DNA of 64,000 nucleotides from Candidatus Blackburnbacteria bacterium (GCA_016183565.1 JACPEJ010000001.1:614479-678478); one strand, 5' to 3'. Positions 2,081-54,671 are shown, counted from the first letter of the stretch. Program-made: numbers and translations. Notes: generated by a model not told the origin, from the sequence alone.

Positions 2081-2134
2081 CTCCCGAGGTGCCAAGCTAT
2101 TCCACCTCCCAGGTGGAATACCAGGTGGAATACC
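2081..2134 (+). repeat. REP-like palindromic element, copy a (tandem GGTGGAATACC duplication at the 3' end)
   Basis: Sequence: TCCCGAGGTGCCAAGCTATTCCACCTCCCAGGTGGAATACCAGGTGGAATACC. Confidence 0.8.
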
Positions 2135-2169
2135 AACACTACCTTCTATCTATCGACTTATAGTACTAA

Positions 2170-2181
2170 ATATGGTATAAT
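2170..2181 (+). promoter_or_regulatory. Extended -10 promoter (TGgTATAAT)
   Basis: TGGTATAAT lies ~45 nt upstream of the GTG start at 2227. A GAGGAGAG RBS sits 8 nt before that start. Confidence 0.45.
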
Positions 2182-2226
2182 ACCTCAGCCAAAAATTGGC
2201 TAGCACTTTGAGAGGAGAGCGTGTAA

Positions 2227-2607
2227 GTGAAGCTTACCTGGGACGATCTGTTCAGGAGCGTCAATCTGATTGGTTGCGACATCGAAACTAGGGAAGGTGG
2301 TAGGTTCTACCGCGGCCCGATCAGCACCGTCGTACACACGGGCGGGCACGTACAAATCCAGACAGCTTGGCTTGCGAGCAGGCCAGTAAGAGATGGCTGC
2401 TGGGTCGAAGATCGTTCGCAGGCCGATATATTGTGTGGAGGAGCAACTGACTTCATTCAGGGCCCATTTCTCCAAGAACAGGAGGGCTACATCGGGTTTT
2501 CCCTTCCATACATCGGCTCGGCTAAGATCTACCTGCGTGGACCCAGACTGATCCGGCGGATGGTGCCAGTCTTCGCGCTGGAAACCCGCACAGCAGCTGC
2601 GGCCTGA
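2227..2607 (+). CDS. Hypothetical protein (126 aa, GTG start) in a ~57% GC islet
   Basis: A strong RBS plus promoter upstream and a terminator downstream favour the + strand. The antisense frame is also open (2200..2616), as expected at high GC. No family was recognised. Confidence 0.35.
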   Translation: MKLTWDDLFRSVNLIGCDIETREGGRFYRGPISTVVHTGGHVQIQTAWLASRPVRDGCWVEDRSQADILCGGATDFIQGPFLQEQEGYIGFSLPYIGSAKIYLRGPRLIRRMVPVFALETRTAAAA

Positions 2608-2646
2608 CCCAATCACATCTGAACATCTCTCAAATCCCTGTCCCTG

Positions 2647-2695
2647 AGCCCCAACGGCAACAACAAACCCGTCTGGGGCTCTTTTCTTTTTTTGC
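2647..2695 (+). terminator. Rho-independent terminator
   Basis: Stem AGCCCCA/TGGGGCT with an inner ACGG/CCGT pairing, then CTTTTCTTTTTTT. Confidence 0.55.
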
Positions 2696-3441: not shown

Positions 3442-3825
3442 TTGCACTACACTCTTGAAGAAATCAGAGAAAAACAAAGAAGATACCTCAAAGAAGCAGT
3501 AAAAGAGATTTTTCAAATAAGCAGGTCCCGAAAAAAGACCACAGAAATTCTCGAAAAGCTGGGGATAAGCCGAGGAAAAATTCACGATGTTTTAAACCAG
3601 TTGGGATTAAGAGAAAGCGTGGATTGGACAGAGGTTATCGAAGTTGGTGGTATAGCAATAAAACTTGAAGATTTGGCTATCTTATTTATGGCTAGAAAGT
3701 ATTTAACCATTAAAGAAAAATATTTAGCATTCACAACCTACCTTAAAGACGAAGGTATAGATAAAACTATATTTTTCGGATCTTACGAGGGGGTTCGAAA
3801 GAAAATCCTAAAGTCACGATCGTGA
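3442..3825 (+). CDS. Hypothetical protein (127 aa), possible HTH segment
   Basis: The ORF follows the previous gene after 6 nt. The segment TTEILEKLGISRGKIHDVLNQLGL looks HTH-like. Confidence 0.4.
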   Translation: MHYTLEEIREKQRRYLKEAVKEIFQISRSRKKTTEILEKLGISRGKIHDVLNQLGLRESVDWTEVIEVGGIAIKLEDLAILFMARKYLTIKEKYLAFTTYLKDEGIDKTIFFGSYEGVRKKILKSRS

Positions 3826-3923
3826 TAAAATGGTATAATTAACTGGCAAACCCTATACAAACCTTTCCGTTCGCGAGGTCTATGCGTCCTTGCCTCACGA
3901 TAGCGGTTGTACGGGGTAGGCAC

Positions 3924-4010
3924 GCCAGAGTGCTGAAATTGGCAGACAGGCACGGTTTAGGACCGTGTGCTTTTATAAGCGTGTGGGTTCAACTCCCACC
4001 TCTGGCACCA
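3924..4010 (+). tRNA. tRNA-Leu (anticodon TAG), 87 nt with CCA
   Basis: Acceptor GCCAGAG/CTCTGGC, anticodon arm CACGG-TTTAGGA-CCGTG, a long variable arm, T-arm TGGGTTCAACTCCCA, and a 3' ACCA. Confidence 0.8.
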
Positions 4011-4039
4011 ATATCAAACTTTCCGATGTTTACCTGCGC

Positions 4040-4640
4040 TTACCCGCGAGCGTTTTTTAGGGTGCGAGTCCACCACAACAGTTGGTTGATCATGGCTTCC
4101 GCCTGCTTAGTGAGCGAAGCGAAAAGCTCTTTGACATCCATTTTGCCGAATAACATTGAGAAATATTGCTCGCCAGGAATGTGCACGGCGTTTCTGATCG
4201 GCGCCATTTGAAGCTCGATGGCGTTTAGGCGCAATTGCTCCACCGCGCGCTCCGCCAACACTGCCGTAGCTCACAAAAGCAAGCGGCTTGTTATTCCATT
4301 CTGGATATACCCAATCAAGCGCGTTTTTAAGCACCCCGGATGTTCCATGATTGTATTCGGGCGTGACCATAACAAAAGCGTCACCTTCCTCTATTTTCTT
4401 TGTAAAACGCGCGACCGCTTCGTTTTTATAAGGTTCTTGCTTGAATGAAGGGCTTACGGCTTCATTAAAAAATGGCATATCATAGTCGCGCAAGTCAAGC
4501 ACTTCAACAATTACCCCTCCCTGTTTCTTGATTTCCTCTGCGATCCACAGAGCAGCCTTGTCGCTAAAGCGTCCCTCGCGAGTGCTGCCGGCAATTACTT
4601 TGATATGAAGCTGTGTGTTGTTTGTCATAAAATTTGTCAT
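4040..4640 (-). pseudogene. NADPH-dependent FMN reductase (FMN_red family), frameshifted
   Basis: The N-terminal part (MTNNTQLHIKVIAGSTREGRFS...TPEYNHGTSGVLKNALDWV...SYGSVGGAR) is in ORF 4107..4859. The C-terminal part (AVEQLRLNAIELQMAPI...) is in ORF 4040..4261. The two frames switch at about 4245-4250, inside a CGCGCGC run. Confidence 0.6.
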
Positions 4641-9338: not shown

Positions 9339-10670
9339 ATGGAAAACATCACCACGAGTGTAATTGCTCGTTACAAAAATGCAAAGCATTTTTTGCGATC
9401 GTTTTGGGAGGTCTTGAAAAATGGGTATCCTGCAAGAAAATTAACTGTTATCGGTGTGACCGGTACCGATGGCAAGACTACAACTTCTCATTTAATTTAT
9501 GAAATTCTAAAAGAAGCAGGCTATAAGGCTGGACTCGTTTCAACAGTGGGAGCTTGGGTGGGGGAAGAATACAGAAATACGGGGTTTCACATAACTACGC
9601 CAAACGCTAAGATGCTGCAACCTTTCCTAAAAAGGTTAGTAGAGGATGGGGTAACTCACTTGGTTTTGGAGACTACATCACATGCACTAGATCAGCATAG
9701 GGTATTGGGCTGCAATTTTAAAATTGGAGTTTTGACAAATGTTACCCACGAGCATTTAGATTATCATAAAACAATTGAGAGATATCAAAAGGCAAAGGCA
9801 AAGCTTTTTAAGGGAGTTAAAGTTGCAGTTTTGAACAATGACGATGGTGCTTTTGATTATTTTAAAGGTGTTACAAATCCAAGGGCAAAAATTATGTCAT
9901 ACAGTCTCCAGGGGCAAGCGAGTTTGCGCGCTCGGAACGCCAAAGCAGAAGGGGGAATCACAAGGTTTAGTGTGTTAGAGAGAGACAAAACACACAGTCT
10001 AACTACAACACTTTCCGGAGAATACAATATCTCCAATATTTTAGGGGCGGTCGGTGTAGCTCGAGCCATGAAAGTACGTTGGGCGGAAATTAAGTTAGCA
10101 ATTTCGGGTTTTGAGGGAGTTAGCGGACGAATGGAGGTTATTGCAGACAAGCCTTTTAAGCTAATTGTGGATTTTGCACATACGCCAAATGCTCTTGAGA
10201 GTTTGCTTTCTAGCCTTGCAAGGCCAGGCCTTGTGAGCCTGGGTAGGTTAGGTCGGTTGATTGTGGTTTTTGGGTGCGCTGGGGAGAGGGATATTGCCAA
10301 ACGTCCAATGATGGGAGAGATTTCCACCCGTCTTGCTGATATTTCGATTTTTACGGCCGAAGATCCTCGTTCTGAGGATGTAAATACAATTATTGGACAA
10401 ATAGCGAAGGGTGCTAGAGCAGCAGGAGCTGTTGAGACAGAATCCCGACGTGCAAAGCTATTCCACCTCCCAGGTGGAATAAATAGGTTTATTCGTGAGC
10501 CAGACAGGAGGCAGGCGATAAGATTGGCAGTGAAACTTGCCAAACCGCATGATATTGTTGTTATTTGCGGAAAGGGCCACGAAAAAAGTATGGCGTATGG
10601 AAAAATCGAAAAGCCGTGGTCAGATCAAAAAGAAGCTCGAGAAGCTTTGAATGCAAGGAAACTTAACTAG
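9339..10670 (+). CDS. Mur ligase family protein (MurE-like UDP-MurNAc-tripeptide ligase); ORF open from 9258
   Basis: GVTGTDGKTTTSHL P-loop, a central Mur ligase domain, and a C-terminal GKGHE motif. An in-frame REP-like element lies at 10444-10478. Confidence 0.7.
   Translation: MENITTSVIARYKNAKHFLRSFWEVLKNGYPARKLTVIGVTGTDGKTTTSHLIYEILKEAGYKAGLVSTVGAWVGEEYRNTGFHITTPNAKMLQPFLKRLVEDGVTHLVLETTSHALDQHRVLGCNFKIGVLTNVTHEHLDYHKTIERYQKAKAKLFKGVKVAVLNNDDGAFDYFKGVTNPRAKIMSYSLQGQASLRARNAKAEGGITRFSVLERDKTHSLTTTLSGEYNISNILGAVGVARAMKVRWAEIKLAISGFEGVSGRMEVIADKPFKLIVDFAHTPNALESLLSSLARPGLVSLGRLGRLIVVFGCAGERDIAKRPMMGEISTRLADISIFTAEDPRSEDVNTIIGQIAKGARAAGAVETESRRAKLFHLPGGINRFIREPDRRQAIRLAVKLAKPHDIVVICGKGHEKSMAYGKIEKPWSDQKEAREALNARKLN
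10444..10478 (+). repeat. REP-like palindromic element, copy b (inside the murE-like CDS, in frame)
   Basis: CCCGACGTGCAAAGCTATTCCACCTCCCAGGTGGAAT, translated as SRRAKLFHLPGGI. Confidence 0.8.
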
Positions 10671-15214: not shown

Positions 15215-15250
15215 ATCCTGATCTACTTGTACTACCTGTACTACTTGTGC
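15215..15250 (+). repeat. 9-bp tandem repeat (CTACTTGTA-CTACCTGTA-CTACTTGTG-CTAC) directly after a stop codon
   Basis: The same repeat family, in the same orientation relative to the upstream gene, recurs at 63121-63165. Confidence 0.6.
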
Positions 15251-15263
15251 TACTTTAAAGTGT

Positions 15264-15542
15264 ATGGAGCCAGTAGATAGGGTGCATAGACCATTGGGAA
15301 AGATGCTTCTGCATAATTTCTTGGGGGGTATTGCTTGGGCTTTAGGAGTTACTGTTGGTTTGTCAATTGTTTTGGGAATTTTGGGATACTTGGTTTCTAA
15401 GGTAGATTTTGTTCCAGTAATTGGCGATTTTGTTAAGAAAATTACAGAATCTGTCATTGAGCAACCTAAGCCTGAGATCCGGATACCATCTAAAGCTGCC
15501 GCACCAACTCTAATCCCTACTCAACAAATTCCTGAAGAGTAG
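15264..15542 (+). CDS. Hypothetical small membrane protein
   Basis: ORF with one or two TM helices. Confidence 0.35.
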   Translation: MEPVDRVHRPLGKMLLHNFLGGIAWALGVTVGLSIVLGILGYLVSKVDFVPVIGDFVKKITESVIEQPKPEIRIPSKAAAPTLIPTQQIPEE

Positions 15543-15560: not shown

Positions 15561-15633
15561 CCCCGACGTGCAAACGTGTTCCACCGAGTCAAACTCGGTA
15601 GGCAAGTCTGACTTGCCACTTCCCAGGTGGAAT
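15561..15633 (+). repeat. REP-like element, copy c, with a 33-nt insertion carrying two extra hairpins
   Basis: CCCCGACGTGCAAACGTGTTCCACC[GAGTCAAACTCGGTAGGCAAGTCTGACTTGCCA]CTTCCCAGGTGGAA. Confidence 0.7.
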
Positions 15634-25590: not shown

Positions 25591-25600
25591 TAACCTTAGA

Positions 25601-25638
25601 CCCGATGTGCAAAGCTATTCCACTCCCGATGTGGAATG
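25601..25638 (+). repeat. REP-like element, copy d
   Basis: CCCGATGTGCAAAGCTATTCCACTCCCGATGTGGAATGG. Confidence 0.8.
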
Positions 25639-25798
25639 GAAAGTAACTGATGAATTTGACACGAAAGCAAAAATTAATTCTTAAGATTCTTGCCCTTATT
25701 GCAGGGCTGGCATTGGTTCTCAGCTCTCTTCTTTATCCTCTTTTGTATATTCGTTAATTATACCTTGGATCACACCTAGATGTTATACTTTCCTTGCC

Positions 25799-27915: not shown

Positions 27916-27948
27916 AAGCCAGGTTCTTATTCCACCTCCCGAGTGGAA
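27916..27948 (+). repeat. REP-like element, copy e (divergent 5' half)
   Basis: GAAGCCAGGTTCTTATTCCACCTCCCGAGTGGAA. Confidence 0.65.
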
Positions 27949-37795: not shown

Positions 37796-38198
37796 CCAGC
37801 TTTCCTCCTACTTCCAGATTAGCACTTGTTAAGCCGTAATTACAAGCTACGCCACAATCGCTATCTAGGCCTAAAACAACTTCGGGGTCTTTCTTGTTCT
37901 CAAGTTTTGCGAAAAGTTGATATTTTGAACCATCTTTTGAAGAGCGGTAAGAATACTTGAGTTGGTGGACGGGGTCACTGGGCATTTTTTCTATCACCCC
38001 GGGATATTTGCCATGGGTAGAATGATAGATTTCAAGTTCTTTTTGAATTTGCGAGAGGTCACTCTTGCGTTTTTCGTCTCGGGTTTTGGCTTGGAGCTCT
38101 CGAATATAACTGAGAGCAAAAAAACTAACAATTCCCATCACAAGAAGTACGAGAAGTATTGGTGGATTTGAGTTTGCACCCTGGGATACCTTTTTCAT
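37788..38198 (-). CDS. Pilin-like protein (atypical N-terminus)
   Basis: A hydrophobic N-terminus followed by a GspG-like K/R...DL..I...LE.Y segment. Confidence 0.45.
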   Translation of the reverse strand: MKKVSQGANSNPPILLVLLVMGIVSFFALSYIRELQAKTRDEKRKSDLSQIQKELEIYHSTHGKYPGVIEKMPSDPVHQLKYSYRSSKDGSKYQLFAKLENKKDPEVVLGLDSDCGVACNYGLTSANLEVGGKLDE

Positions 38199-38785: not shown

Positions 38786-38941
38786 GAGTTTAAAAAATTT
38801 TCAATTTTCAATTCTTAATTTTTATTCAATTTTTAATGACTAAATGTTTACTAATTAGGTTTTAATCTAATTGAGTATGTTAAATTTAAAATTAGATTAT
38901 TTGGATTTGATTAAAAATTTAAAATTTAAAATTCATTTCCT

Positions 38942-39733: not shown

Positions 39734-39758
39734 GTTGAGAGTAATTTCAAATTAAAAA

Positions 39759-40355
39759 TTACTTTGCTACACAAACATAGCATACATCTTCATCTTCCCA
39801 GGTAACAGTTGATGGACAGCTCTCGAGGGCTCCGGTTAATGGAAAGTTTGTATTTATGTTAATTTTGTAAAGTTCTCCTGTTTTTTTCCTTTCTGTTTCA
39901 GAAGTTGGCACAAAGCAAGCGTAGACAGGCGACTGGCTACCTTGTCCTTTTCCTAGGTATATTGCATCGCTTTTGTCAGCACTGATGTGTTGAGAGGGTA
40001 GTCCAGACGGAATGAGCCCCTCAGTAACCAAAATTCCGGGTTTCGAGCAATCTTCGTTTTCACAAATACCAACCTCAACGTTTGTTGTTTTATGCCAAGA
40101 AAAAGGATTGGCATTGTCTCTGCTGTTGAGATTAGACGACCAGGGAAGTTTACCGCGAGCTATATAGAAATTATTAATCCCCTCGACAATTGTTTCGGCA
40201 TCTTTGGAAAGATTACTATCCCGCTTGAGGCGAACTCCCTCGAAGGGGTCGGTAACGAAAAGTGCCATGGAAACAAGAATAGCAAGAAAGCCAATTGCAA
40301 TAACAAGTTCGATAATAGTAAAACCGTTTCTCAAAAAAGTTGTGAGGCGAAGCAT
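39759..40355 (-). CDS. Type IV pilin-like protein
   Basis: RNGFTIIELVIAIGFLAIL. Confidence 0.7.
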   Translation of the reverse strand: MLRLTTFLRNGFTIIELVIAIGFLAILVSMALFVTDPFEGVRLKRDSNLSKDAETIVEGINNFYIARGKLPWSSNLNSRDNANPFSWHKTTNVEVGICENEDCSKPGILVTEGLIPSGLPSQHISADKSDAIYLGKGQGSQSPVYACFVPTSETERKKTGELYKININTNFPLTGALESCPSTVTWEDEDVCYVCVAK

Positions 40356-40409
40356 ACTCTTAAATAGCTTAAAGAAGAAACCTTATAAAAAGCAAGTAGG
40401 AGAATGTTG

Positions 40410-40901
40410 TTATTCAGGAAGGCAAATAAAACATCCCGCGGAGAGATCTGCCTTTGGGCAACCAGCAGTAGAGCTACCTGTGTTATTCGCATATTTTGCA
40501 TTAGCCCTAAAGGTTTTGGAGATTGGTGCAAAACAAACTGTGGTCAGACCGGAAGTACTATTCTCCGTTACAATAAGACTTGTTAGATTGGTCCTGCTCT
40601 GAAATTGAGTTTTAAGTTCATTTTTGCTTACCAGTTCGGTAATGCCAGCATCAGAGCTTGACATGGCTGTGCCATTAGGCAGAGTCGCCCACGGGCCTTT
40701 TTGAAACGTTGTATAATACCTCTCTACTGCATTCAAAAGTTCGGCAGCATCAGATTTGAGGCCTGTATCCGTACCCTTCCTGATCTGTTCAATTGGGTTA
40801 ATAGCGGAAAGAACGGCAGTTGCCAAAATTCCAATAACTGCAATAACGATAAGAAGCTCAATAAGGGTAAAACCACGAAGTTTTGCGGCAGGTTTATTCA
40901 T
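40410..40901 (-). CDS. Type IV pilin (candidate major pilin)
   Basis: LRGFTLIELLIVIAVIGILA and a C-terminal Cys pair. It is the first pilin gene downstream of pilC. Confidence 0.7.
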   Translation of the reverse strand: MNKPAAKLRGFTLIELLIVIAVIGILATAVLSAINPIEQIRKGTDTGLKSDAAELLNAVERYYTTFQKGPWATLPNGTAMSSSDAGITELVSKNELKTQFQSRTNLTSLIVTENSTSGLTTVCFAPISKTFRANAKYANNTGSSTAGCPKADLSAGCFICLPE

Positions 40902-40948: not shown

Positions 40949-42154
40949 TCAAAACTGTCCTGTGAGATTGTAGATTGGCAGGATTACTGCGATAACCAGA
41001 AAACCAACACCAATTCCTAAAATTATCATTACCAAAGGCTCGACTGCTGCTGTTAAACCTTTTACTAAATGCTCAGATTCCTGCTCGAATACATGGGAGA
41101 CTTTTATTAAGGACTCGTCTAGTTTCCCTGTTTCTTCGCCTACTGCTAGCATTTGGTAAAGCATTGGCGGGAAAACCTCTGCTTCTTGAGAAAAGGCATA
41201 GGCAAGAGAGAATCCTTGTTCAACCTGCGTTGAGGAACGAGTAATTGCAGCGTTGACAACAGTATTTCCAACAACTCCTGAAACTATCCGTAACCCCTCA
41301 AGAAGAGAGACACCCGCGCCAACTAAAAGTCCTAGAGTTCGGGTTAGTTCAGTTAAAATAACTTGTCTTTGCAAGGGGCCAAGAATAGGTAGTTTTAATT
41401 TTAATTCGTCAACTTTTTGTCGGCCTTTGGGTGTCTTTGCAAGAAGCATTAATACCCACACTATTCCTCCTATTACTCCTCCCACAATCCACCAGTATTT
41501 TTCCGAGAATGACGAGATAGCCATTAGAGCTTTGGTTGGCATTGGCAATTCGGCGTTAAAATCAGCAAACAAAGAAAGCATTTTGGGTATAACAAAGACC
41601 ATCATTACTACTGCAACGGCTATCATGCCAACAACAACAATTACAGGATAAATAAGAGCTCCTTTTACTTTTGATTGAAACTCGCGCTGGGCTTCAAGGT
41701 TATCCGCAAGTCTTGCTAGAATGTTGTCCAGAACACCTCCGCCTTCGCCAGCTTTAACAAGTGCGATATAAACAGGGGAAAAAATTTTAGGGTGTTTTTC
41801 TAAGGCAGCCGAGAGAGAGGAACCTCCTTCGATATCTGAGAGTAGACTATCTACTATCGGACGCAGAGCTGGACGAGATTGTGTCTTTATGATAAGAAGT
41901 GCGTCGGTAATTGGCAAACCTGCTGTAATCATTATGGAGAACTGTCTTGTAAAAAGTGCGATGTCGTAAAGAGTTACTCTTTGACCAACGCGGCGCCACA
42001 AATCCAGAAGAGAGGCATGTTTGGGAGAGAGTGAGATAACTACGTACCCTTGCTCTCGCAATAATTTTGCTGCTTCGCGGATATCTTGGGCTTCAACTTG
42101 ACCTTTAACAAGTTTTCCACTTTTGTCTCGGGCCTTGTAGACAAAACGGTTCAT
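40949..42154 (-). CDS. pilC: Type IV pilus platform protein PilC (GspF family)
   Basis: Two GspF-type repeats and 3 TM helices. Confidence 0.85.
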   Translation of the reverse strand: MNRFVYKARDKSGKLVKGQVEAQDIREAAKLLREQGYVVISLSPKHASLLDLWRRVGQRVTLYDIALFTRQFSIMITAGLPITDALLIIKTQSRPALRPIVDSLLSDIEGGSSLSAALEKHPKIFSPVYIALVKAGEGGGVLDNILARLADNLEAQREFQSKVKGALIYPVIVVVGMIAVAVVMMVFVIPKMLSLFADFNAELPMPTKALMAISSFSEKYWWIVGGVIGGIVWVLMLLAKTPKGRQKVDELKLKLPILGPLQRQVILTELTRTLGLLVGAGVSLLEGLRIVSGVVGNTVVNAAITRSSTQVEQGFSLAYAFSQEAEVFPPMLYQMLAVGEETGKLDESLIKVSHVFEQESEHLVKGLTAAVEPLVMIILGIGVGFLVIAVILPIYNLTGQF

Positions 42155-43212
42155 ATGCTTCCTTGTACAAGCCTTGTTAACTCCTCAGGTCGCATAGCGA
42201 AGCTTTTGGCAGTTTCCAAGGTAATTAGGCCTTGTTTAACATAGGAGGCTAAAATCTTTTCGATATTATTCATACCAAACTCGGCGGAAGTTTGAATGAT
42301 GTTATCAATTTGATGGGTTTTGCCCTCGCGGATAGCTGTGCGGACTGCCGAAGTACCAGTTAAGATTTCGTACGCTGCGGTTCTGCCCCCACCTATTAAC
42401 GGGACAAGGCGCTGTGAAAAGACAGCTTCTAGAACATTAGAGAGCTGCAGGCGTACTTGGCCTTGTTGTTCCTCAGGAAAAACGTCCACAATTCTGTCGA
42501 TTGTTTGGGCGGCAGAATTTGTATGTAATGTAGCAAAGACTAAATGCCCGGTTTCTGCAACAGTTAGGGCAGCAGCAATTGTTTCGTGGTCACGCATTTC
42601 TCCGACGAGCACCACATCAGGATCTTCACGAAGGGCGGATCTTAGTGCAATTTCCCAAGAATGTGTGTCTTCTCGCATCTCTCTTTGAGATACCAAGGCC
42701 ATCTGCGACTGGAATACAAACTCAATAGGATCTTCTATGGTTAATATGTGGACAGGTCGAGTTTGGTTGATTTCATTAAGAATGGCAGCCAAAGTTGTGG
42801 ATTTACCATGTCCAGTTGGACCAGTAACTAAGATAAATCCTTGACGCAGTTTGGTAAAGTTGTGGCAAATTGGGGGTAGTTTCAGTTCGTCGATTGTTGG
42901 AATTTTTAGGGGAACTCTTCGGAATGTTGCTGCAATTGTTCCTTTTTGGTAATAAACATTCGCTCTGAAACGTGCGTTTTGGGAAAAAGCAATTGAAAAA
43001 TCAATTTCTTTATTAACAGTAACCCTTTCCAATTGCTCAGCGCTTAAGGAGGGGTTAATAAGCCTTTGAGTGCTTTCCGGGGCTAAAACACTTTCGTTGG
43101 GGACTTTCAAAAGTTCGCCGTCAACCCGAATAGTCGGTGGAGCACCAACAACAAGATGAAGATCTGATGCTTTTTTGTCTATGGATAGTTGTAGTAGTTG
43201 TTGTAGTTCCAT
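42151..43212 (-). CDS. pilT: Twitching motility ATPase PilT
   Basis: 353 aa. Walker A GPTGHGKSTT, plus Asp box and His box. Confidence 0.85.
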   Translation of the reverse strand: MELQQLLQLSIDKKASDLHLVVGAPPTIRVDGELLKVPNESVLAPESTQRLINPSLSAEQLERVTVNKEIDFSIAFSQNARFRANVYYQKGTIAATFRRVPLKIPTIDELKLPPICHNFTKLRQGFILVTGPTGHGKSTTLAAILNEINQTRPVHILTIEDPIEFVFQSQMALVSQREMREDTHSWEIALRSALREDPDVVLVGEMRDHETIAAALTVAETGHLVFATLHTNSAAQTIDRIVDVFPEEQQGQVRLQLSNVLEAVFSQRLVPLIGGGRTAAYEILTGTSAVRTAIREGKTHQIDNIIQTSAEFGMNNIEKILASYVKQGLITLETAKSFAMRPEELTRLVQGSI

Positions 43213-43213
43213 A

Positions 43214-45013
43214 TTATTCCTGTGCTACTCTTAACACCTCTTCTATGGTAGTAATTCCTTCCAAGGCTTTCAAGTATCCATCTTGTTTCATCGTAATCAT
43301 TCCTTCTTCTTTTGCTTGTTTTTCTATGTCGCCAGATGAAGCATGCTCAAGAACAAGTCTTCCTATCTTTTCTGTGATAGGCATTACCTCGTAAATTCCA
43401 ACTCTTCCCATGTATCCAGTATTACCACACTCTGTGTCTCCTTTGCCATGGTAAAGTTTTGTCCCACCTTGTGGATTGTTGGGCCAAAGACTTCCCAGGT
43501 TGCTTTTCATATCTTCTAAGATTTTAGGATCTGGTTCATAGGCCTCTTTGCAGTCTTCGTGGATTTTTCTAACGATTCTTTGGGCAACAATGCATGTAAT
43601 TGTCGACCCAAGGAGAAATGGTTCGGCACCCATATCTAAAAGGCGTGGGAGAACACCCGAGGCGTTTGTTGTATGTAATGTCGAGAAAACTAAATGGCCT
43701 GTTAGCGCAGCTTGGATTGCAAGTCCAGCGGTTTCAGCGTCACGAATTTCACCAACCATGATGATGTTTGGGTCTTGCCTGAGGAATGCGCGCAGCCCCG
43801 TTGCAAAAGTTAGACCCGCTTGTGGGTTAACTTGAACTTGGTTGACTCCGGCTATTTGGTACTCAACGGGATCTTCAAGGGTTACTACGTTTACCCTGGG
43901 TGTGCTAACTTTTGATAAGACGGAGTAGAGGGTTGTGGTTTTACCAGATCCGGTCGGACCACAGACGATGATAATTCCATGTGGTCTTAAAATTGCGTCT
44001 TCTAGATTTTTCAAGGCTCGGCCTCTGAGTCCTAATTCCGGAAGTTTTGGTACTCCGCCTGTTTTTTTAAGAAGACGCATAACGATTTTTTCTCCATGTG
44101 CTGTAGGCAGAGAGGATACGCGCAAGTCCACCTCTTCGCCGCCGGATTTAAAATTAAACCTCCCGTCTTGGGGTACTCTTTTTTCGTCAATTTTCATACC
44201 AGATAGAATTTTTATTCTTGAGATTAGGGAATCATGAAGTTGTTTGGTCATAATAAACTTCTCTTGTAAAATCCCGTCAATGCGGTATCTAACGCGAGTT
44301 GATTTTTCTTCAGGTTCTACATGAATATCTGAAGCGCGCGATTTAACGGCAAAGGTTAAAAGTTCTTTTACAATTTTGGCGATTGGTGCTTCTCTTATGA
44401 CTTGATCTAAGCGAGATAAATCAACAGTGTTGACCCCGCCTTCTGTGGGTTCTGCTTCTTTAATTGCTTCTGTTACACCTCGGCTTAAACCAACTGAATA
44501 TTGTTCTCCGATGACTCTTTCAATCTTTGAAGGAACAGCGGAAACAGGGCGAACGCGCATACCTGTTTTTTGTCTTACAAACTCGACAGCGGTGATATCC
44601 AGAGGATCAGCCATTGCCAGAGTAATTTGTTGAGCGTCTTTGTCAATTGAAATGGGGATAACGTTAAACCTTGAGGCAACTGATTGGGTGAGAGCAGAAA
44701 GTGCTTCGGGAGAAATAGGAGTTTGGTCTAAGTCTATAAAGGGAACGTTGTAAAAAACAGCGCGCGCTTTTGCCATTTGCTCTTCTTTAACCATCCCTAG
44801 CTCTTTTAGTATTTCTTCTTGAGTGCGTCCTGTTTGGAGTTCTTCTAACTTGATCTTTTCTGCGCCTTCTGGCCCTAAGACTCCTTGGGAAACAAGTATA
44901 TCTACAACAGAGGAGGCATCATTGTTGTGGGGAACATCAGGGGTTAAAGTAGCACTGGTTGCAGTTTCGGTCTTACTACTCTTATTTTTACTCGCGGGGG
45001 CAGGCTGGGGCAT
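43214..45013 (-). CDS. pilB: Type IV pilus assembly ATPase PilB (GspE family)
   Basis: 599 aa. An N-terminal GSPII-like domain and Walker A GPTGSGKTTT. Confidence 0.9.
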   Translation of the reverse strand: MPQPAPASKNKSSKTETATSATLTPDVPHNNDASSVVDILVSQGVLGPEGAEKIKLEELQTGRTQEEILKELGMVKEEQMAKARAVFYNVPFIDLDQTPISPEALSALTQSVASRFNVIPISIDKDAQQITLAMADPLDITAVEFVRQKTGMRVRPVSAVPSKIERVIGEQYSVGLSRGVTEAIKEAEPTEGGVNTVDLSRLDQVIREAPIAKIVKELLTFAVKSRASDIHVEPEEKSTRVRYRIDGILQEKFIMTKQLHDSLISRIKILSGMKIDEKRVPQDGRFNFKSGGEEVDLRVSSLPTAHGEKIVMRLLKKTGGVPKLPELGLRGRALKNLEDAILRPHGIIIVCGPTGSGKTTTLYSVLSKVSTPRVNVVTLEDPVEYQIAGVNQVQVNPQAGLTFATGLRAFLRQDPNIIMVGEIRDAETAGLAIQAALTGHLVFSTLHTTNASGVLPRLLDMGAEPFLLGSTITCIVAQRIVRKIHEDCKEAYEPDPKILEDMKSNLGSLWPNNPQGGTKLYHGKGDTECGNTGYMGRVGIYEVMPITEKIGRLVLEHASSGDIEKQAKEEGMITMKQDGYLKALEGITTIEEVLRVAQE

Positions 45014-45118
45014 ACATCCATATTGATATAATTTTTGGTAAAATGCAAGGAAAGCAAGTAACGTCAGACTTTGTTGCTGATGTCACTCTGGGTTACTGGT
45101 GTTACTGATATTACTCCT

Positions 45119-45796
45119 ATGCATGCTTTTTTGATTGTTGGCAAAACAGAAAAAGAACGACAGGGTGCGGTTGTGGAAATTCTTAAACAGAATAAGGTGG
45201 GGGAGACTTTGAGTCTAACTTCTGACAAAGAGGTATATTCTATCTCGAGTGTTCGTAATTTAAATAAAACCCTGCGGCTAAAGACTTTGGACGAAACCAC
45301 AAGAGCGGTTGTTGTGAAAAATGCTCATAGATTGACAACTGAGGCAGCTAATGCTTTTCTTAAAACTTTAGAAGAGCCTACAGCTCATACAATTCTTATT
45401 TTAACCGCACCTAATCAAGATTCTCTACTTCCTACAATAGTCTCACGTTGTCAGGTGGAAAATTTAGGCAATAGTGCTCCCACTTCGGGCAAGAAGGAGG
45501 AGTTGGAAAAACTTGTGAATTCTTCTATCGGAGAAAGACTTATTGTGGCTGAAAAATTTGATGATCGGGAGATGGCTTTAGAGTTTGTAGTAGAACAAAC
45601 GTTTGCTGCACGAGATGTGATGATAAGTTCGGTAAAAACAGATGGGGCTTCAGCTAACACGGCTTCCTGTCTAAAACTACTTAAAGATCTAAAACAGGCT
45701 AAGGATGATTTAGAATCCAATGTTAATGTAAAGTTGGTTCTTGTGAATCTGCTTCTCCAATATCCTATATTCCATTCCACTCCCGATGTGGAATAG
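45119..45796 (+). CDS. holB: DNA polymerase III delta' subunit (short)
   Basis: NAHRLTTEAANAFLKTLEEPTAHTILILTAPNQDSLLPTIVSRCQ. The C-terminal 8 codons are encoded by REP copy f. Confidence 0.65.
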   Translation: MHAFLIVGKTEKERQGAVVEILKQNKVGETLSLTSDKEVYSISSVRNLNKTLRLKTLDETTRAVVVKNAHRLTTEAANAFLKTLEEPTAHTILILTAPNQDSLLPTIVSRCQVENLGNSAPTSGKKEELEKLVNSSIGERLIVAEKFDDREMALEFVVEQTFAARDVMISSVKTDGASANTASCLKLLKDLKQAKDDLESNVNVKLVLVNLLLQYPIFHSTPDVE

Positions 45797-45810
45797 GTTG
45801 ACACGTCGGG
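45768..45810 (-). repeat. REP-like element, copy f (inverted orientation), 5' of the RAYT gene
   Basis: The reverse complement reads CCCGACGTGTCAACCTATTCCACATCGGGAGTGGAATGG. Confidence 0.75.
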
Positions 45811-45837
45811 AGGATTGTTGTAGTGTAATGTTAGTAC

Positions 45838-46512
45838 ATGCCTACTCGGATAATACCTCTCGTAAACGGTGAGTTTTACCATCTTTTTAATCGAGGTGTG
45901 GCGCATCAACCAATTTTTTCTACTAACAGGGATTACCAAAAGTTTTTACTCCCTCTACAATACTATCAGTTACAAACACCACCTGTTAAGCTGTCTCGAT
46001 TTATGCAATTACAAAAGGATGAAAAGGAATACTTACTCAAAGAACTCGAGACGAAGGGAAAGAAATTAGTAAATCTTATCTGCTTTGTTCTAATGCCAAA
46101 TCACTTCCATGCTCTTGCACAACAATCAGTTAACAATGGTATTTCTACTTTTATAAAGAGAGCTACTGATAGCTATGCCCGTTATTTCAACACCAAACAT
46201 GAACGTGTTGGTCCTTTGTTTCAGGGAGCATTTAAGGCGGTAAGAATTACAACGGTTGAGCAATTACTTCATGTGTCAAGATATATACACCTGAATCCAC
46301 TGGTTTCTTTTGTTGTGCGTCAAGAAAACTTCATCCAATATCAGTGGTCATCGCTCCAATACTTCTTACAAGAAAACATTTCTCAGAATATAGTTGACCC
46401 TACTCCTATACTCCAAAATTTCAGTTCTAAGGAAGAATATAAGAAGTTTATATTAGACCACGCTGAATACGCAAAGGAGTTGGAGAAAATTAAGCACATG
46501 GTGATTGATTAA
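45838..46512 (+). mobile_element. REP-associated tyrosine transposase (RAYT; IS200/IS605-like Y1 HUH transposase)
   Basis: YHLFNRGV ... LMPNHFHAL (HUH motif) ... SRYIHLNPL (catalytic Tyr). The gene is flanked on both sides by REP-like elements in opposite orientation. Confidence 0.75.
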
Positions 46513-46513
46513 T

Positions 46514-46549
46514 ACCGATGTGCAAAGCTATTCCACTCCCGATGTGGAA
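46514..46549 (+). repeat. REP-like element, copy g, immediately 3' of the RAYT stop
   Basis: ACCGATGTGCAAAGCTATTCCACTCCCGATGTGGAA. Confidence 0.8.
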
Positions 46550-46676
46550 AGTTTGTGGAAAGTTGCTTTGGGGGCCAGGTTTTTAACCTTCGCTAAGTTT
46601 GCAAAGACTCGCATATCAAGCTATAATTATAGTTAGGAAATGGGGTTTTAAAAGCCCTATTTTTCGTGTTTAGACA

Positions 46677-48581
46677 ATGGCTTCACTTTCCGCAAAAACT
46701 ACCAGTTACACTGCAAAAGACATACAAGTTCTTGAGGGTTTAGAGCCAGTTCGCAAACGTCCTGGAATGTTTATCGGCTCAACTGATTCCCGAGGACTTC
46801 ATCACCTCATCACAGAAATAATTGACAACTCAGTCGATGAAGCTCTAGCAGACCACGCAACTGAAATTTGGGTAAGTCTTAACCCCGATGGGTCAGCAAC
46901 TGTTGAAGACAATGGGCGTGGTATACCTGTTGATAAACACAAGTCAGGAGTTTCAGCTTTAGAGCTTACTATGACAAAGCTCCACGCCGGGGGTAAGTTT
47001 GGAGACTCGGCTTACAAAGTCTCAGGAGGCTTACATGGAGTTGGAGCATCTGTCGTTAATGCACTTTCAGAGTGGCTTGAGGTAGAGGTGCATAGAGATG
47101 GATTCGCCTGGGTACAACGATACAAAAAGGGCGTTCCAGAAAGTGCACCGAAAAAAGGAGAGGCATTAAAGGACACGGGCACTAAGACAACCTTCTTGCC
47201 TGATAAGGCAGTTTTTACTACGACAGATTGGAACAAAAAGATAATCGAGGATTCTATTCGGAATCGTGCTTATCTTATTGCTGGGCTGAAGTTTCATCTT
47301 ACAGATAAGGAGGGTCCTAAAACATTTTACTTTGAAGGAGGTATAAAAAGCCTTGTTGCACACCTGAATAGTGATAGAACCACTCTTTCAAATATAGTTT
47401 ACGTTTCCCGTGAGGGGAATGATATTTCGGCTGAGGTTGCTATTCAATACAACGATGGGATGGGGGAGATGGTTGATTCTTTTGTAAATGTTATAAAGAC
47501 TCCCGATGGTGGGACTCATTTAACTGGTTTCAGGATCGGACTTACGCGCGCAGTTAATGATTATGCGAAAAAGATTGGTGTTACGAAGGAAATAATTGAG
47601 TCAATAAGCGGAGAGGATACACGCGAGGGTTTGACTGCAGTATTATTTGTCAAGATTCCAACCAATAGTATTCAATTTGAATCGCAAACAAAAACAAAAC
47701 TTAATAATCCCGAGGCTCAAGGTTTTGTTGCTCAACTTGTCAAAGAGGGTTTGGACACTTATTTTGAGGAGAACCCAAGCGAGGCGAGACGAATTCTTGA
47801 GAAAATTACATTGGCCACTAAGGCCCGGCTTGCTGCGCGAGCTGCTAAAGATGCGGTTTTGCGCAAAGGCGCGCTCGAGGGGTCAGGTCTTCCTGGGAAA
47901 CTTGCTGATTGTCAAGAGAAAAATCCGGTTTTTAGTGAGTTATTTATCATAGAAGGGGATTCTGCTGCTGGTACGGCAAAAGGCGGAAGGGACCGAAAGT
48001 TTCAGGCAATATTGCCAATTGGGGGGAAAATTCTTAACACGGAACGTGCGCATCTTGACAAAATTGTCAAATTCGAAGAGCTTAAAGATCTTATTATTGC
48101 GTTGGGAGCGGGGATAGGGGACATGGTTAACCTTGATAAACTGCGCTACCACCGAATCATTATTATGACTGATGCGGATGTGGACGGGTCTCACATCGCA
48201 ACTCTTTTGATGACATTTTTTTATCGACATTTCCCCGAAATAGTTCAAAAAGGGTACCTCTATCTTGCTCTTCCGCCACTTTATAAGGTTCAGCTTGGAA
48301 AAGAGATCTTTTATGCCTACAATGAAGAGGAAAAGCAAGAAATACTTACAAGCCATGGCAACGGCAAAGCCACAATCCAGCGCTATAAAGGACTTGGGGA
48401 AATGAACGCAGATCAGCTTAGGGATACGACTATGGATCCTGAGAAGAGGACACTTAAGCAAATTACCATAGAGGATGTTGAACAGACAGATAGAATATTT
48501 AGCACTCTTATGGGAGAGGATGTGCCACAGAGGAAAAAGTTTATACAGACATATGCGAAATTTGCGCAGTTGGATATATAA
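46677..48581 (+). CDS. gyrB: DNA gyrase subunit B
   Basis: GHKL ATPase motifs ([22 protein letters not shown]), Toprim domain (EGDSAGG), and a GyrB tail. Confidence 0.95.
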
Positions 48582-50590: not shown

Positions 50591-50673
50591 AACGAAAAAC
50601 GGGAAACGTTATACGAAGAACGAAGAAGTATTTAACGTCTGCCGTTTTACGTTTAACATATTACCTTCTACTC

Positions 50674-53600
50674 ATGAAAATCGGCAAAGTAATACCAGCT
50701 GAGATAACTCAAGAAATGCATAGAAGCTATCTTGATTATGCGATGTCTGTTATTGTCGCGCGTGCTCTTCCTGATGTTCGGGATGGTTTAAAACCTGTAC
50801 ACCGAAGAATTCTTTTTGCAATGAATGATCTGGGTTTAGCTCCTAGCTCAGCTTACACAAAGTCAGCAAAGGTTGTTGGAGAAACGATGGGTAAATACCA
50901 TCCTCATGGTGATGGACCAATCTATGATGCTCTTGTCCGCATGGCCCAAGACTTCTCGTTGCGCTACCCGCTGGTTGATGGCCAGGGAAACTTCGGCTGT
51001 TTTACTAAAGATACAAAAATTAAACTAACAGATGGTCGCGATATAACCTTCCAGGATCTCATAGTAGAGTACAAGAAAGGTAAAAAGAATTATACCTATA
51101 CCATAAACTCCCAGGGACTGATTAACATTGCAGAAATAAAGCATCCCAGGCTGACAATTAAAAAAACTCAGATCGTAAAAATTACTTTAGACAACGGCAA
51201 GAAAATAAAATGTACACCGAACCACTTATTTATGTTGAAAGACAGAAGCTATAAGGAGGCAGCCAATCTAACGAAAAAAGACTCTCTCATGCCTTTTTAC
51301 CAAAGGCTATCTCAAAACACGGATCGCCTCAATAGGGAAGGCTATGTTCTAATCTTCCAAAATTCAACTGACACGTGGGTGCCCACACATCATCTAGCCG
51401 ACAACTACAACTTAACTCACGGCACATACACAAAAAGCGCAGGAAGAGTGCGACATCACCAAGATTTTAACAAGCTTAATAACAATCCAGACAATGTAAT
51501 CAGAATGGCATGGGAAAACCACTGGAAGATCCATTATGAAAATGCAAAATTGAAACACAAAGACCCTGAATACCGCGAGAAGATAGCAAAAGGCCGGACA
51601 GAATACTGGTCAAATCCTGCCGCACGCGAGAAGCAAGCACTTCGTACGTCAACCATGAACTTCAAGAACTGGCAAAATCCCAAGTATAGGGAAAAAATGA
51701 AAAAATTGTTAAGTGAAGTTAATATTCAATACATTGCTGCACACCCTGAAAAAAGGAAAGAGTTCAGCGAAAGAGCGCACAGAACGCTCAAGAGACTATG
51801 GCAAGATCCAAACTACCGTGCCGCAATGCATGAAAAGATTATTAAAGGCAACAAAAACCACACAATCAACAAGACTGATAGGGTCAAGTTTATAAATATT
51901 TGCAAGGAGGTAACTAAACAGTTTCAATCTCTAGATGAACATAATTACAATCAAGCACGAAGTACCGTTTACCCTTACGGTTCATCTCCCTTTTGGCGAA
52001 CGGGATTGAAAAACTACTTTAATAATGACCCAGATCTCGTAAGACTTGAGATAAACAAGAATCACAAAATCGTGAGTGTAGAAACTCTTGTTAAAAGAGA
52101 GGATGTCTATGATTTAACAATTGACTCAACACATAACTTTGCACTAGCAGCAGGAGTTTTTGTCCACAACTCAGTAGATGGCGACCCCCCGGCAGCTATG
52201 AGATATAGTGAGGTGCGTCCCTCGAAAATTTCTCAGGAATTATTAAAAGATATTGATAAAGGCACCGTAGAATTTGATGATAACTTTGACGGATCTTTGA
52301 AAGAACCAAGATATTTGCCTGCACTCTTGCCTAATCTTCTTTTAATGGGCGCAGAGGGCATTGCTGTGGGTATGGCGACAAAGATTCCGCCTCATAATTT
52401 AACAGAAGTTACAGATGCAATTATTGAAACTATTAAAAAAGGAAAGGTTGTAAGAGAGGGGAATGGAGGAACCCCTAGACCCCCCTTCGACTACGCTCAG
52501 GGTCGCTCAGGACAAGTCCATTCGGCTAGCTCAGGACAAGCGGATGATTTCTTTATAAAAAGGATTGACCTTGCGGTTTCTCAAAATAAGACCAAGGTTA
52601 CAGATACAATAAAAGAGCAAAGCTCTCTTCAACTGCGTATAGAAGCACCAAAAGTCGATTTTGCCTCTGATATAACAATTGAAGAAATAATGGGCTATAT
52701 CAAAGGCCCTGATTTCCCAACCGGAGCTGTAATTTATGGCGGGAAATTGCTTCCGGAGGTTTATAGTTCGGGGCGAGGCAGAATTGTTATCAGAGGTGTT
52801 GCAAAGATTGAAGAAACTGTCCGCGGCAAGACTCGCATTGTTATAACAGAACTGCCATACCAGGTAAACAAGGCGGTACTTGTTGCAAAGGTCGCAGAAC
52901 TTGTTCGCGATAAAAGGATTGTTGGAATCTCGGATCTTCGGGATGAGTCTGACCGACGCGGAATGTCGGTTGTTATAGAGCTTAAAAAAGATGCCCGCCC
53001 CAAATCGGTTCTAAATAACCTCTACAAACACACAGATTTACAAACAACATTCCCAGCAAACTTTGTTGCTCTTGTTGATGGAGTGCCTAGAACTCTAAAT
53101 ATTAAGCAGATTTTGGTCGAATACATAAGACACAGGCAACAAGTAGTAACCAGACGATCGATATTTGAGCTTACAGAAGCAAAGCGACGGGCTCATATCC
53201 TTGAGGGATTGAAGATTGCCCTTGACAATCTGGATGCAGTTATAAAAACAATTCGCGAGAGCAGGGATGGGGAAACTGCGAAAAACAACTTGATAAAGAG
53301 GTTTGGCTTAACCCAAGTTCAGGCAGTTGCCATTCTTGATATGCAACTCAGGCGTCTTTCAGCTTTGGAGCGGGAAAAGATTGAAGAAGAATATAAGAAA
53401 GTTCAAGAGATCATAGATTATTTGACAGATCTCCTACTTCACCCCGAGAAAATTTTGAAAGTCATAGAGGATGAGCTTGGTGCTCTTAAGGAAAAATACG
53501 GAGATGTAAGACAGACCCGAGTTGTGGCGTCTCCAATAGGGGAGATGTCGGAAGAAGATTTGGTTGCAAAAGAAGATGTTGTAATTACTATTACCAAGAC

Positions 53601-54591
53601 AGGATATATAAAACGGGTTCCACCAAACACATATCGGCAACAGAGGCGAGGAGGGAAGGGAGTAGTGGGTATGACAACAAAAGAGGAAGATGAGATAGCT
53701 TCTCTTCTTTCCGCTTCTACGCATGATAGTCTTATGTTTTTTACTAACAAAGGTCGTGTCTTTGGTTTGCGGGTTTGGGAAATTCCTGAAAGCTCCCGAC
53801 AGTCCAAGGGACAAGCAGTTGTTAACCTTATTAACATCGATCAGGGGGAAAGGGTAGAATCGGTTTTATCTTTGGAGAAAGAGAGTGGTGTTAAGTATTT
53901 AATTCTTGCAACCCGAGACGGTGTAATTAAAAGAACATCTATTGAGCAGTTCAAGAACTTGCGTTCCGGAGGCTTAATTGCGATTAGACTTGACAAGAAT
54001 GACTCTTTGGCTTGGGTAAGACCAACGGATGGCAAGAGTCATGCGATTCTTGTAACTAAGAAGGGTAAGTGCATTCGTTTTGCGGAAAGTGATGTTCGGC
54101 CAATGGGAAGACCAACGCGGGGAGTGCGAGGGATTCAGCTACATGACGGAGATCAGGTTGTTGGCATGGAAGTTGTTCCGGAAAAACCAGAGACAACAAC
54201 AGACAAGAGACGGAAATTGTTTAGGAATATACTTGTTGTTATGGAAAAGGGTCTCGGGAAAAGAACTCCGATCCAATATTTCCCCTTGCAGAAACGAAGC
54301 GGGATGGGGGTTAAAGTTGCTGAGTTGACGGACAAAACAGGAGATGTGGCAGCAGCGCTTTTGGTAACACAGGAGATTCCTGAGGTTTTGATTACGAGTA
54401 AAACCGGGCAGGTGATTAAACTTCCTTTGAAGAATATTCCGCAATTGGGCAGAGCTACTCAGGGGGTAATTCTAATGCGCTTTAGTGATAAGGCCGATCA
54501 GGTTGCGGCAGTTGCGACACTTGAGAAAGACGGGGGAGAGGAAGAAACACCTGTGACAGAGACTTCAGAAGAAGCTCCTGAGGTAAACTAG
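50674..54591 (+). CDS. gyrA: DNA gyrase subunit A, interrupted by an in-frame intein
   Basis: The extein reads ...[12 protein letters not shown]|[16 protein letters not shown]... An intein lies between the two halves. GyrA beta-pinwheel repeats follow. Confidence 0.9.
50998..52170 (+). mobile_element. GyrA intein (391 aa) with a putative HNH-type homing endonuclease domain
   Basis: Starts at Cys ([13 protein letters not shown], block A). Block B is CTPNHLFML. Ends ...[12 protein letters not shown], followed by a Ser +1 nucleophile. The middle part carries THH...N...NHWKIH and no LAGLIDADG motif. Confidence 0.8.
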
Positions 54592-54600
54592 TGCCACATA

Positions 54601-54671
54601 TCCCGAGGTGCCAACCCCAGTAGTACAACATTGTTGACTACGGGGCAGGCGTATTCCACCTCCCAGGTGGA
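54601..54671 (+). repeat. REP-like element, copy h, with a 35-nt inserted hairpin
   Basis: TCCCGAGGTGCCAA[CCCCAGTAGTACAACATTGTTGACTACGGGGCAGGC]GTATTCCACCTCCCAGGTGGAAT. Confidence 0.7.

Follow-up and report, generated by a model that had tools for sequence, protein, structure and literature searches.

REP-like hairpins and their probable cognate RAYT in a genome of Candidatus Blackburnbacteria

Classical REPs (repetitive extragenic palindromes) are largely species-specific, and in the REP-associated tyrosine transposase (RAYT) of Escherichia coli the residues W94, Q95 and R104 contact GTAG. The canonical REP is defined by a 5′ GT[AG]G tag at the foot of its hairpin, and the motif Y---NP is the signature of class 2 and of RAYTs, as opposed to the Y----Q of IS200 transposases (PMC6006769). 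Occasional REP copies placed in frame within genes are known (PMC3733652, PMC6006769), and the survey of 2018 found no REP-like structures in the flanks of subclass 2.1 of these enzymes (PMC6006769). Why RAYTs and REPs last long in bacterial genomes, that is, whether they are selfish replicators, domesticated tools or both, is an open question. Here, eight copies of a short hairpin element are described from a window of 64,000 nt (the whole stretch of DNA that was analysed) in a metagenome-assembled genome (MAG) of Candidatus Blackburnbacteria, a lineage of the Microgenomates within the ultra-small bacteria of the candidate phyla radiation (CPR). These copies are probably REP-like, non-autonomous hairpins cognate to a RAYT encoded at positions 45838-46512 of the window, with which they would form a REPtron typical of a large RAYT family of the CPR/Patescibacteria.

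The system works like the known pairs of RAYTs with REPs or REP doublets forming hairpins (REPINs), yet two formal marks of these pairs are missing, namely the GT[AG]G tag and a score above the cut-off of the NCBIfam family. In the searchable literature no description of REP/RAYT systems in the CPR was found, nor was there anything on an orthologous copy within a gene whose synonymous sites are conserved. REP/RAYT biology is in this way extended to the CPR/Patescibacteria and to a branch of RAYTs near a group without known REPs. The system, in genomes of ~0.7 Mb, is compact and widely sampled, with a RAYT that is single in the window and a simple, recognisable module.

The repeat family and the RAYT gene of the window

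A search for the pattern TTCCAC-N4-12-GTGGAA showed seven exact matches in the window (2100, 10461, 25618, 27930, 45775, 46531 and 54654) versus 0.02 expected, and none out of 100 shuffled sequences reached seven. The eighth copy (c) is degenerate, with its hairpin match at 15613 (TTGCCAC..GGTGGAA). When the copies were made into a profile and the window was searched with nhmmer without filters, no copies beyond these eight were revealed.

The unit consists of a 10-nt 5′ box (tCCCGAnGTG), a linker (cAAAGCTATTc) and a 19-nt hairpin. The linker contains the 8-nt stretch CAAAGCTA, the distance from the GTG of the box to the CAC of the hairpin is 11 nt, and the loop between the hairpin arms is 7 nt long. 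The loop is CTCCCAG in subtype 1 (copies a, b and h, and in a degenerate form c) and TCCCGAT in subtype 2 (copies d, f and g), whereas copy e has the in-between form CTCCCGA. In subtype 2 the box repeats the loop and the 3′ arm of the hairpin, and in subtype 1 it does likewise, minus 1 nt. The 9-mer CCCGATGTG is found four times in the window versus 0.14 expected. The linker is treated here as a sequence-specific site, which in the copies upstream of RAYT genes is partly a -35 hexamer.

An earlier reading of the same sequence (hereafter the original prediction) had listed all eight copies within a few bases of their starts and had separated the same two loop subtypes, of which copy e is an intermediate. 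It had also spoken of a ~38-bp palindrome, but only the 19-nt hairpin is palindromic and the remainder is box and linker. The internal duplication that it had noticed is real, but not its restriction to subtype 2, since subtype 1 carries the duplication too, with a 1-nt deletion. The eight copies are as follows.

Copy a, 2082..2132, + strand, subtype 1: box TCCCGAGGTG (2082-2091), linker (2092-2099), hairpin (2100-2118); the 12-nt unit CCAGGTGGAATA stands in tandem (2109-2120 and 2121-2132); intergenic, between a terminator-ended small transcript and the small, GC-rich open reading frame (ORF) 2227-2607.
Copy b, 10443..10481, + strand, subtype 1: box TCCCGACGTG, linker CAAAGCTA, hairpin (10461-10479); within murE.
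Copy c, 15561..15632, + strand, degenerate subtype 1: box CCCCGACGTG (15561-15570), 11-nt linker, 5′ arm TTCCACC (15579-15585), insert of ~35 nt with two small hairpins of its own, then loop and 3′ arm TTCCCAGGTGGAA to 15632; 18 nt past the stop of ORF 15264-15542 and 48 nt ahead of thrS.
Copy d, 25600..25641, + strand, subtype 2: box ACCCGATGTG, linker CAAAGCTA, hairpin (25618-25636), then a TGGAA duplication; 9 nt past the tyrS stop.
Copy e, 27930..27948, + strand: hairpin only (TTCCACCTCCCGAGTGGAA), without a box; 64 nt past the recG stop and ahead of what is probably the true start of the following gene.
Copy f, 45770..45811, - strand, RAYT-upstream: read on the + strand, TTCCA duplication (45770-45774), hairpin (45775-45793), linker TAGGTTGA and 3′ box CACGTCGGGA (45802-45811), the box lying towards the RAYT; the hairpin makes up the last 8 codons and the stop of holB (FHSTPDVE*).
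Copy g, 46513..46564, + strand, subtype 2, RAYT-downstream: box TACCGATGTG (46513-46522), linker, hairpin (46531-46549), followed by GTGGAAAGTT duplicated in tandem; 0 nt from the RAYT stop.
Copy h, 54601..54672, + strand, subtype 1: box TCCCGAGGTG (54601-54610), linker start CCAA, insert of ~37 nt forming a 14-bp bulged hairpin, GCGTA, hairpin (54654-54672); 9 nt past the gyrA stop, between convergent genes.

Extragenic placement after stop codons, as expected for REPs, had been proposed for the family and holds for copies c, d, e, g and h at the distances given above, but copy b lies inside murE and copy f overlaps the end of holB. The distal arm shows a short tandem duplication in four copies (a, d, f and g). 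The hairpin-forming inserts of 35-41 nt in the loop of c and the linker of h are unique in sequence, and a second repeat family was ruled out on that ground. A small second hairpin formed from GTG-linker-CAC was also dropped, as 3-5 pairs around an 11-nt loop gave no support for a stable fold. In seven of the eight copies the order from box to hairpin is read on the G-rich + strand. The GC skew is positive throughout the window and thus the + strand has a leading-strand composition. As to a phage source, no match was found in the phage collection and the element occurred in no viral contigs.

The RAYT lies between holB and gyrB, and it is the only one of the window, without remnants of others, beside six solo copies of the element and the two that flank it.

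45838-46512, + strand: RAYT-like gene of the Y1 HUH type, 224 aa, with HUH motif H89-F-H91, Y149 in Y---NP and a C-terminal WSS.
45799..45827, + strand: putative RAYT promoter inside copy f, with -35 TTGACA (45799-45804), 17-nt spacer and -10-like TAGTGT (45822-45827), the ATG being at 45838.

The protein carries the arrangement by which the RAYT class was assessed, that is, an HUH motif and a catalytic Tyr in Y---NP about 58-67 residues apart. It scored 32.6 bits against Pfam Y1_Tnp (cut-off 23), and its top NCBIfam family is REP_Tyr_transpos (NF047646, equivalog). HUH, Y149-IHL-N153-P154 and WSS are invariant in 22 homologues. An AlphaFold2 model built on the homologue alignment (pLDDT 86.8, pTM 0.84) has as its best match in the PDB the chain 4ER8_A, that is, the E. 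coli RAYT in complex with a REP hairpin (E 4.9e-5, TM-target 0.69), followed by TnpA of IS608, ISDra2 and IS200. In the sequence alignment, the family motif LFQGxFK has an invariant Q129 preceded by F, probably at the place where the E. coli RAYT has WQ. Homologues are abundant in metagenomes (6332 at E<1e-5). The exact 224-aa sequence is not on record, because the deposited gene call (P0001) is a 169-aa version.

Recurrence of the element and the RAYT across genomes

Copies f and g flank the RAYT in inverted orientation, with their boxes facing the gene. The association was followed across genomes in both directions. In the first, the box-linker pattern alone was searched for in one genome per species, which gave 41 loci. 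True elements were 34 of these, located in many CPR MAGs and in a few MAGs labelled otherwise, and some of the taxon labels ('uncultured Gammaproteobacteria', Elusimicrobia, Omnitrophota) are unverified. The other seven (L002, L007, L011, L021, L025, L029 and L041) were rejected as chance matches without a hairpin. Six RAYT homologues adjoin elements in these loci, which had been picked by the element pattern alone, and one 22-nt element sequence is common to several candidate phyla.

In the second direction, 88 distinct RAYT loci were selected by protein similarity alone (33-56% identity). A CAC-N7-GTG hairpin is present in 115 of their 171 flanks (67%) versus ~2% by chance. The upstream hairpin ends at a median of 43.5 nt before the ATG and the downstream one starts at a median of 22 nt past the stop. 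Inverted flanks are also found in L037, L024, L005 and most of the 88 loci, and direct ones in L012 and L003. With shuffles that ignore relatedness among the loci, the stems of 113 distinct hairpins showed a covariation of 0.338 versus 0.179 when shuffled (0/500), and at most 0.147 with partners slid, while the box matched the loop and 3′ arm of its own element (direct or flipped) at 3.76 out of 5 variable positions versus a null of 2.79 (0/2000 shuffles). In 50 of 99 elements, CAC is preceded at 11-12 nt by a box ending in GTG. The likeness of box and arm thus belongs to the conserved design of the family and is not a recent accident of subtype 2, and an origin of the element by partial duplication, as once suggested for that subtype, is too narrow an account.

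The basic module is composed of a 5′ box ending in GTG, a linker of 11-12 nt (yrAAGCTAnTn) and a CAC-N7-GTG hairpin. A full-length form of ~60 nt (box-hairpin-box′) consists of two inverted modules with one common hairpin, as an imperfect palindrome, and was found in L001, L010, L023, L031, L038, L049, L072 and L134. In the window, copies a, b, d and g are left halves, copy f is a right half and the full-length form is absent. The original prediction had set independent short palindromes against fragments of one longer element. The copies do correspond to the termini of the RAYT unit and to halves of the ~60-nt element; each dispersed copy is solo, however, in the manner of REPs, and no RAYT remnant is near any of them. 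Its proposal of a REP-like dispersed family tied to the RAYT of the window is borne out by the Y1 HUH reading frame, the inverted flanks f and g, and the recurrence in dozens of genomes.

The exact hexamer TTGACA is found in 24 of 50 upstream modules, 7-8 nt past the hairpin and overlapping the box, whereas 52 downstream modules, read in the corresponding orientation, all lack it. TAnnnT follows 15-19 nt beyond the hexamer in 20 of these 24, and the ATG lies 27-34 nt past the hexamer. From this sequence pattern we infer that the upstream module doubles as a promoter of the RAYT, and such a built-in promoter hints at possible autoregulation.

Two further observations concern RAYT loci of other genomes. 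The contig of L003 carries, next to a canonical RAYT, a second and divergent one (3474-4136, 38% identity), the element of which has a like architecture with box AAGGGTG, linker CGAAGCTAGTC and hairpin CACCCTAAGGGTG. Box and hairpin have changed jointly there and the linker is kept, so that each RAYT has its own element type. In the RAYT flanks of L045, L047, L051, L055, L057 and L108, the distal arm and a few bases are tandemly duplicated 2-6 times, as at copies a, d, f and g of the window; GATTGTCACCTG, three times at L045, is an example. These duplications may have been left by cleavage and rejoining that took place repeatedly, or by slippage.

Copies within genes and further features of the window

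Copy b is placed in frame in murE (9339-10670), where it codes for SRRAKLFHLPGGI, part of a loop of the C-terminal domain that is variable. This loop has 15-25 residues in the present clade and is absent from more distant Microgenomates. In MurE homologues the loop contains H-x-x-G-G peptides, which at the DNA level are hairpin variants of the element at the identical site. The site shows the following states.

L134: full-length element, in the frame of the window.
L133: full-length element, with 1 nt more in the linker and the box thereby shifted to another reading frame.
L131: full-length element.
L130: hairpin and 3′ box.
L135 and L132: hairpin.
L042: nothing recognisable.

The murE copy is thus orthologous in L134, L133, L131, L130, L135 and L132. 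A net insertion relative to the nearest relatives was considered and rejected, the loop length being similar there because the relatives carry the element too. MurE of the window and of L134 are 63% identical in protein, and outside the element the two genes show 62% nucleotide identity and 37.5% identity at third positions. Within the element, on the other hand, the two agree at 35 of 42 nucleotides and at 12 of 14 third positions (P = 3e-4). It follows that the murE copy is old and has been constrained or homogenised as nucleic acid rather than as protein. Copy b equals copies a and h over 21 nt, which is consistent with homogenisation within the genome.

A more far-reaching reading may be entertained tentatively, though we hold it to be rather doubtful. 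The murE element would be an ancient, vertically inherited REPIN and the source of the MurE loop of the clade, retained at the nucleotide level, and the duplication of box and arm would be a guide for cleavage at two ends. Together these would define a new subclass of RAYTs with a tripartite, GTAG-less element that lasts across candidate phyla. Retention could come from a 'refreshing' by the RAYT through cleave-and-rejoin gene conversion, or from a host function of the hairpin at that place. In any case, this is an orthologous copy in an essential gene with synonymous sites conserved where the other synonymous sites of the lineages are saturated. It offers a natural marker for two questions, namely whether the vertical inheritance of REP-type elements extends over deep time and whether the RAYT homogenises them.

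In other genomes, 3 of the 34 elements are in-frame copies in long ORFs. A full-length element lies within a GTPase (MMR_HSR1) gene at 246-300 of L131, and a copy within a gene with an SNase domain at 3778-3790 of L134. Such elements account for unusual inserted peptides (H-x-x-G-G, PDVRSYSTPDVE) and changed C-termini of annotated CPR proteins.

Several further features of the window were recorded.

1850-2040: promoter-like TTGACA..TAGAGT followed by a transcript-like stretch of ~150 nt, which ends in a clear intrinsic terminator (agcgctcc..ggagcgcttttttt, ~2003-2035) and has no match in Rfam at E<=1; this CPR lineage may thus have a small RNA here that is as yet undescribed.
2200-2620: GC-rich island (56% versus 41.5% in the window) with overlapping ORFs 2227-2607 (+) and 2200-2616 (-) and with promoter-like and terminator-like sequences of its own on its flanks; foreign DNA or a gene for a small protein would be possible.
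3924-4010: tRNA-Leu called by ARAGORN but not by the Rfam tRNA model, overlapping ORF 3882-4211; probably a false positive.
15223-15256 (+) and 63124-63157 (-): a second, unrelated repeat of 34 nt (CTACTTGTACTACCTGTACTACTTGTGCTACTTT, 94% match) just upstream of gene starts (ATG 15264, +; GTG 63117, -); in appearance, a 5′ leader or operator motif common to the two genes.
35900-40900 (-): at least four small genes with a common 55-nt 5′ segment, which codes for a type IV pilin-like N-terminus (GFTLIEILVV...), adjoining genes of the same cluster at 40949-45013 (-).
50674-54591: gyrA, 1305 aa with an intein; NCBIfam N- and C-terminal splicing regions at residues ~107-500.
63475-63525: perfect tandem heptamer AGGTTGT, ~7 copies, intergenic, near the end of the window.

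Mechanism, alternatives and known systems

In the mechanism proposed for the REP-like elements, the RAYT would bind the hairpin as single-stranded DNA, most likely on the lagging-strand template (here the + strand sequence), and would recognise it through the conserved CAC/GTG foot and the linker. Cleavage and rejoining would take place at the borders of the element, one being the 5′ edge of the box and the other lying just 3′ of the distal arm, where short duplications in tandem accumulate. Modules would thereby be copied or replaced at other sites of the genome, and the upstream module would besides have been co-opted as the RAYT promoter. Copies would persist where they are tolerated, for instance in protein loops (murE) and at gene ends (holB), and the murE copy would then be held as DNA, either because the RAYT goes on homogenising it or because the hairpin is under selection. 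Mobilisation, binding, strand, cleavage positions and gene conversion between copies are all deduced from sequence patterns. The two recognition sites suggested in the original prediction would also be plausible.

Several observations weigh against an assignment to the REP/RAYT systems. The RAYT remains below the cut-off of NF047646 (46.8 versus 80 bits), a phmmer search of the protein against PDB sequences gave no relative, and the elements have no 5′ GT[AG]G tag, the stem being preceded by the linker (..GCTA/ATTC). The -10 of the window is weak (3/6 matches) and was not called by a consensus promoter scan, and the covariation and box values carry the neglect of relatedness mentioned with them. 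The only RAYT in the window has flanks of subtype 2, and no partner of subtype 1 was seen there. The RAYT is found at differing places in related Blackburnbacteria genomes. Finally, most of the loci selected by their RAYT show no extra dispersed copies within ±10 kb; proliferation as in the window may be exceptional, and the unit could act as an insertion sequence (IS) in other lineages.

The last points lead to the main alternative, in which the RAYT and its two flanking modules are an autonomous IS of the IS200/IS605 type and the dispersed copies are solo ends or miniatures, similar to palindrome-associated transposable elements (PATEs) or miniature inverted-repeat transposable elements (MITEs). 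The site of the gene does vary, from holB-gyrB in the window to a position by DUF5660 in L042, and in L130, L131 and L134 the syntenic murE-thrS region is without the gene. Two flanking hairpins only, as at most RAYT loci, direct flanks like the ends of IS608 (L012 and L003), a promoter in the upstream end, where many IS elements have theirs, and the very numerous metagenomic homologues (6332, as given above) would also suit an IS. Nevertheless, we consider this alternative unlikely. The protein has Y---NP in place of the Y----Q of IS200 (PMC6006769), it is 224 aa long with a WSS C-terminal extension, and its top structural match is the RAYT 4ER8. Moreover, the flanks are inverted in the window and at most loci, one RAYT without remnants stands against six solo copies in 64 kb, and the two RAYTs of L003 are divergent, with an element type each.

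A weaker alternative holds that the elements are cis-acting hairpins at the RNA level, with a role in 3′ ends, stability or attenuation, and that the link with the RAYT is incidental. Four copies lie 0-18 nt past stop codons and seven of the eight are co-oriented with the + strand genes around them, the synonymous-site conservation of the murE copy would also suit an RNA structure, and the middle arm can pair with the box or the 3′ arm, so a switch-like fold is possible. A terminator role had indeed been raised in the original prediction, but no T/U run stands behind any hairpin (the tails being TACCAGG, TAAATAG, TGGAAAG, AGTTTGT and TTTAGTG), and no terminator-like site was called in 45000-47000, which includes copies f and g. 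With Rfam 15, only a tRNA reached the gathering threshold in the whole window and nothing at E<=1 was found in 1700-2780. In addition, copies fall within coding regions, those around the RAYT point both ways, copy e lacks a box, the inserts of c and h disrupt any common fold, and hairpins at 67% of RAYT flanks across genomes are unexpected for a gene-regulatory motif. As the primary explanation this is quite improbable; as a secondary effect an RNA-level role is possible, but it leaves the linkage with the RAYT unexplained.

Chance, low complexity or an assembly artefact has nothing in its favour beyond the shortness of the motif and is refuted by seven hairpins versus 0.02 expected, 36 further copies in independent MAGs of many studies and covariation over 113 distinct hairpins, which leaves it a negligible probability.

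Among the known systems, the Rickettsia palindromic elements (RPEs) are similar in their in-frame insertion in essential genes and in the small, host-dependent genome, but they are longer and unrelated in sequence. With RPEs and the CGTC-tagged REPs (Di Nocera 2013) the present elements share first two stem pairs that are A-T and loops of 5 nt (subtype 1), and CGTC is found inside the box of b, c and f. In the CGTC-tagged REPs, however, the tag abuts stems of 8-9 bp and no transposase is known, whereas here 11 nt separate the box from the stem and there is a probable cognate RAYT. Membership in that group (PMC3733652) was rejected, as the central box base is free (CCGAnGTG) and the box does not adjoin the stem.

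The IS200/IS605 family (IS608, ISDra2) and PATEs have in common with this system a Y1 HUH enzyme and subterminal hairpins, and single-strand recognition is a feature of these IS. A short sequence, of the kind that is read jointly with bases beside the hairpin, is also found at a fixed distance from the hairpin, the box at 11-12 nt here versus the left cleavage site of IS608 at 19 nt 5′ of it. Orientation bias to the lagging-strand template and a promoter in the left end are further similarities. On the contrary, IS200 enzymes are of ~130-150 aa with Y----Q, their ends are not inverted repeats and the whole IS is multi-copy, whereas here the flanks are inverted, there is a single gene in 64 kb and solo modules outnumber it.

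With subclass 2.1 of TnpA_Y1 (group 1 of Bertels, long and with a WSS extension), the protein of the window shares the core and the C-terminal WSS region. It shows 27-36% identity, with coverage to residue ~222, to 'transposase' genes of Legionella, Pseudomonas and Collinsella plasmids. The widely distributed, IS-like borderline character of that group is also similar, and we infer from the motifs that the RAYT of the window belongs to it. CAC-N7-GTG hairpins are absent at the three distant proteobacterial and actinobacterial plasmid homologues that were examined. The CPR family, unlike subclass 2.1, shows clear hairpins in its flanks, accompanied in this genome by dispersed copies.

The closest resemblance is to the RAYTs with REPs or bacterial interspersed mosaic elements and REPINs (E. 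coli YafM, 4ER8; the REPINs of Pseudomonas). In common are short, mostly intergenic hairpin repeats, with in-frame intragenic copies as in murE, and a Y1 HUH gene, single in the window, between inverted copies of the repeat, as in a REPtron. Also shared are the class-2 motif Y---NP with a RAYT-like fold, the co-existence of subtypes in one genome and the occurrence of forms resembling doublets (full-length) and singlets. The differences from REPs are the invariant CAC/GTG bases within the stem, 7 nt apart, and a separate 5′ box at a fixed 11-12 nt which copies the loop and 3′ arm. Unlike a REPIN doublet, the two units have one central hairpin in common and no spacer between them. The protein departs from RAYTs proper in its score under the NCBIfam cut-off and probably in the FQ found here versus the GTAG-contacting WQ of the E. 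coli RAYT. In contrast to the species-specific classical REPs, the 22-nt sequence of this family is common to several candidate phyla.

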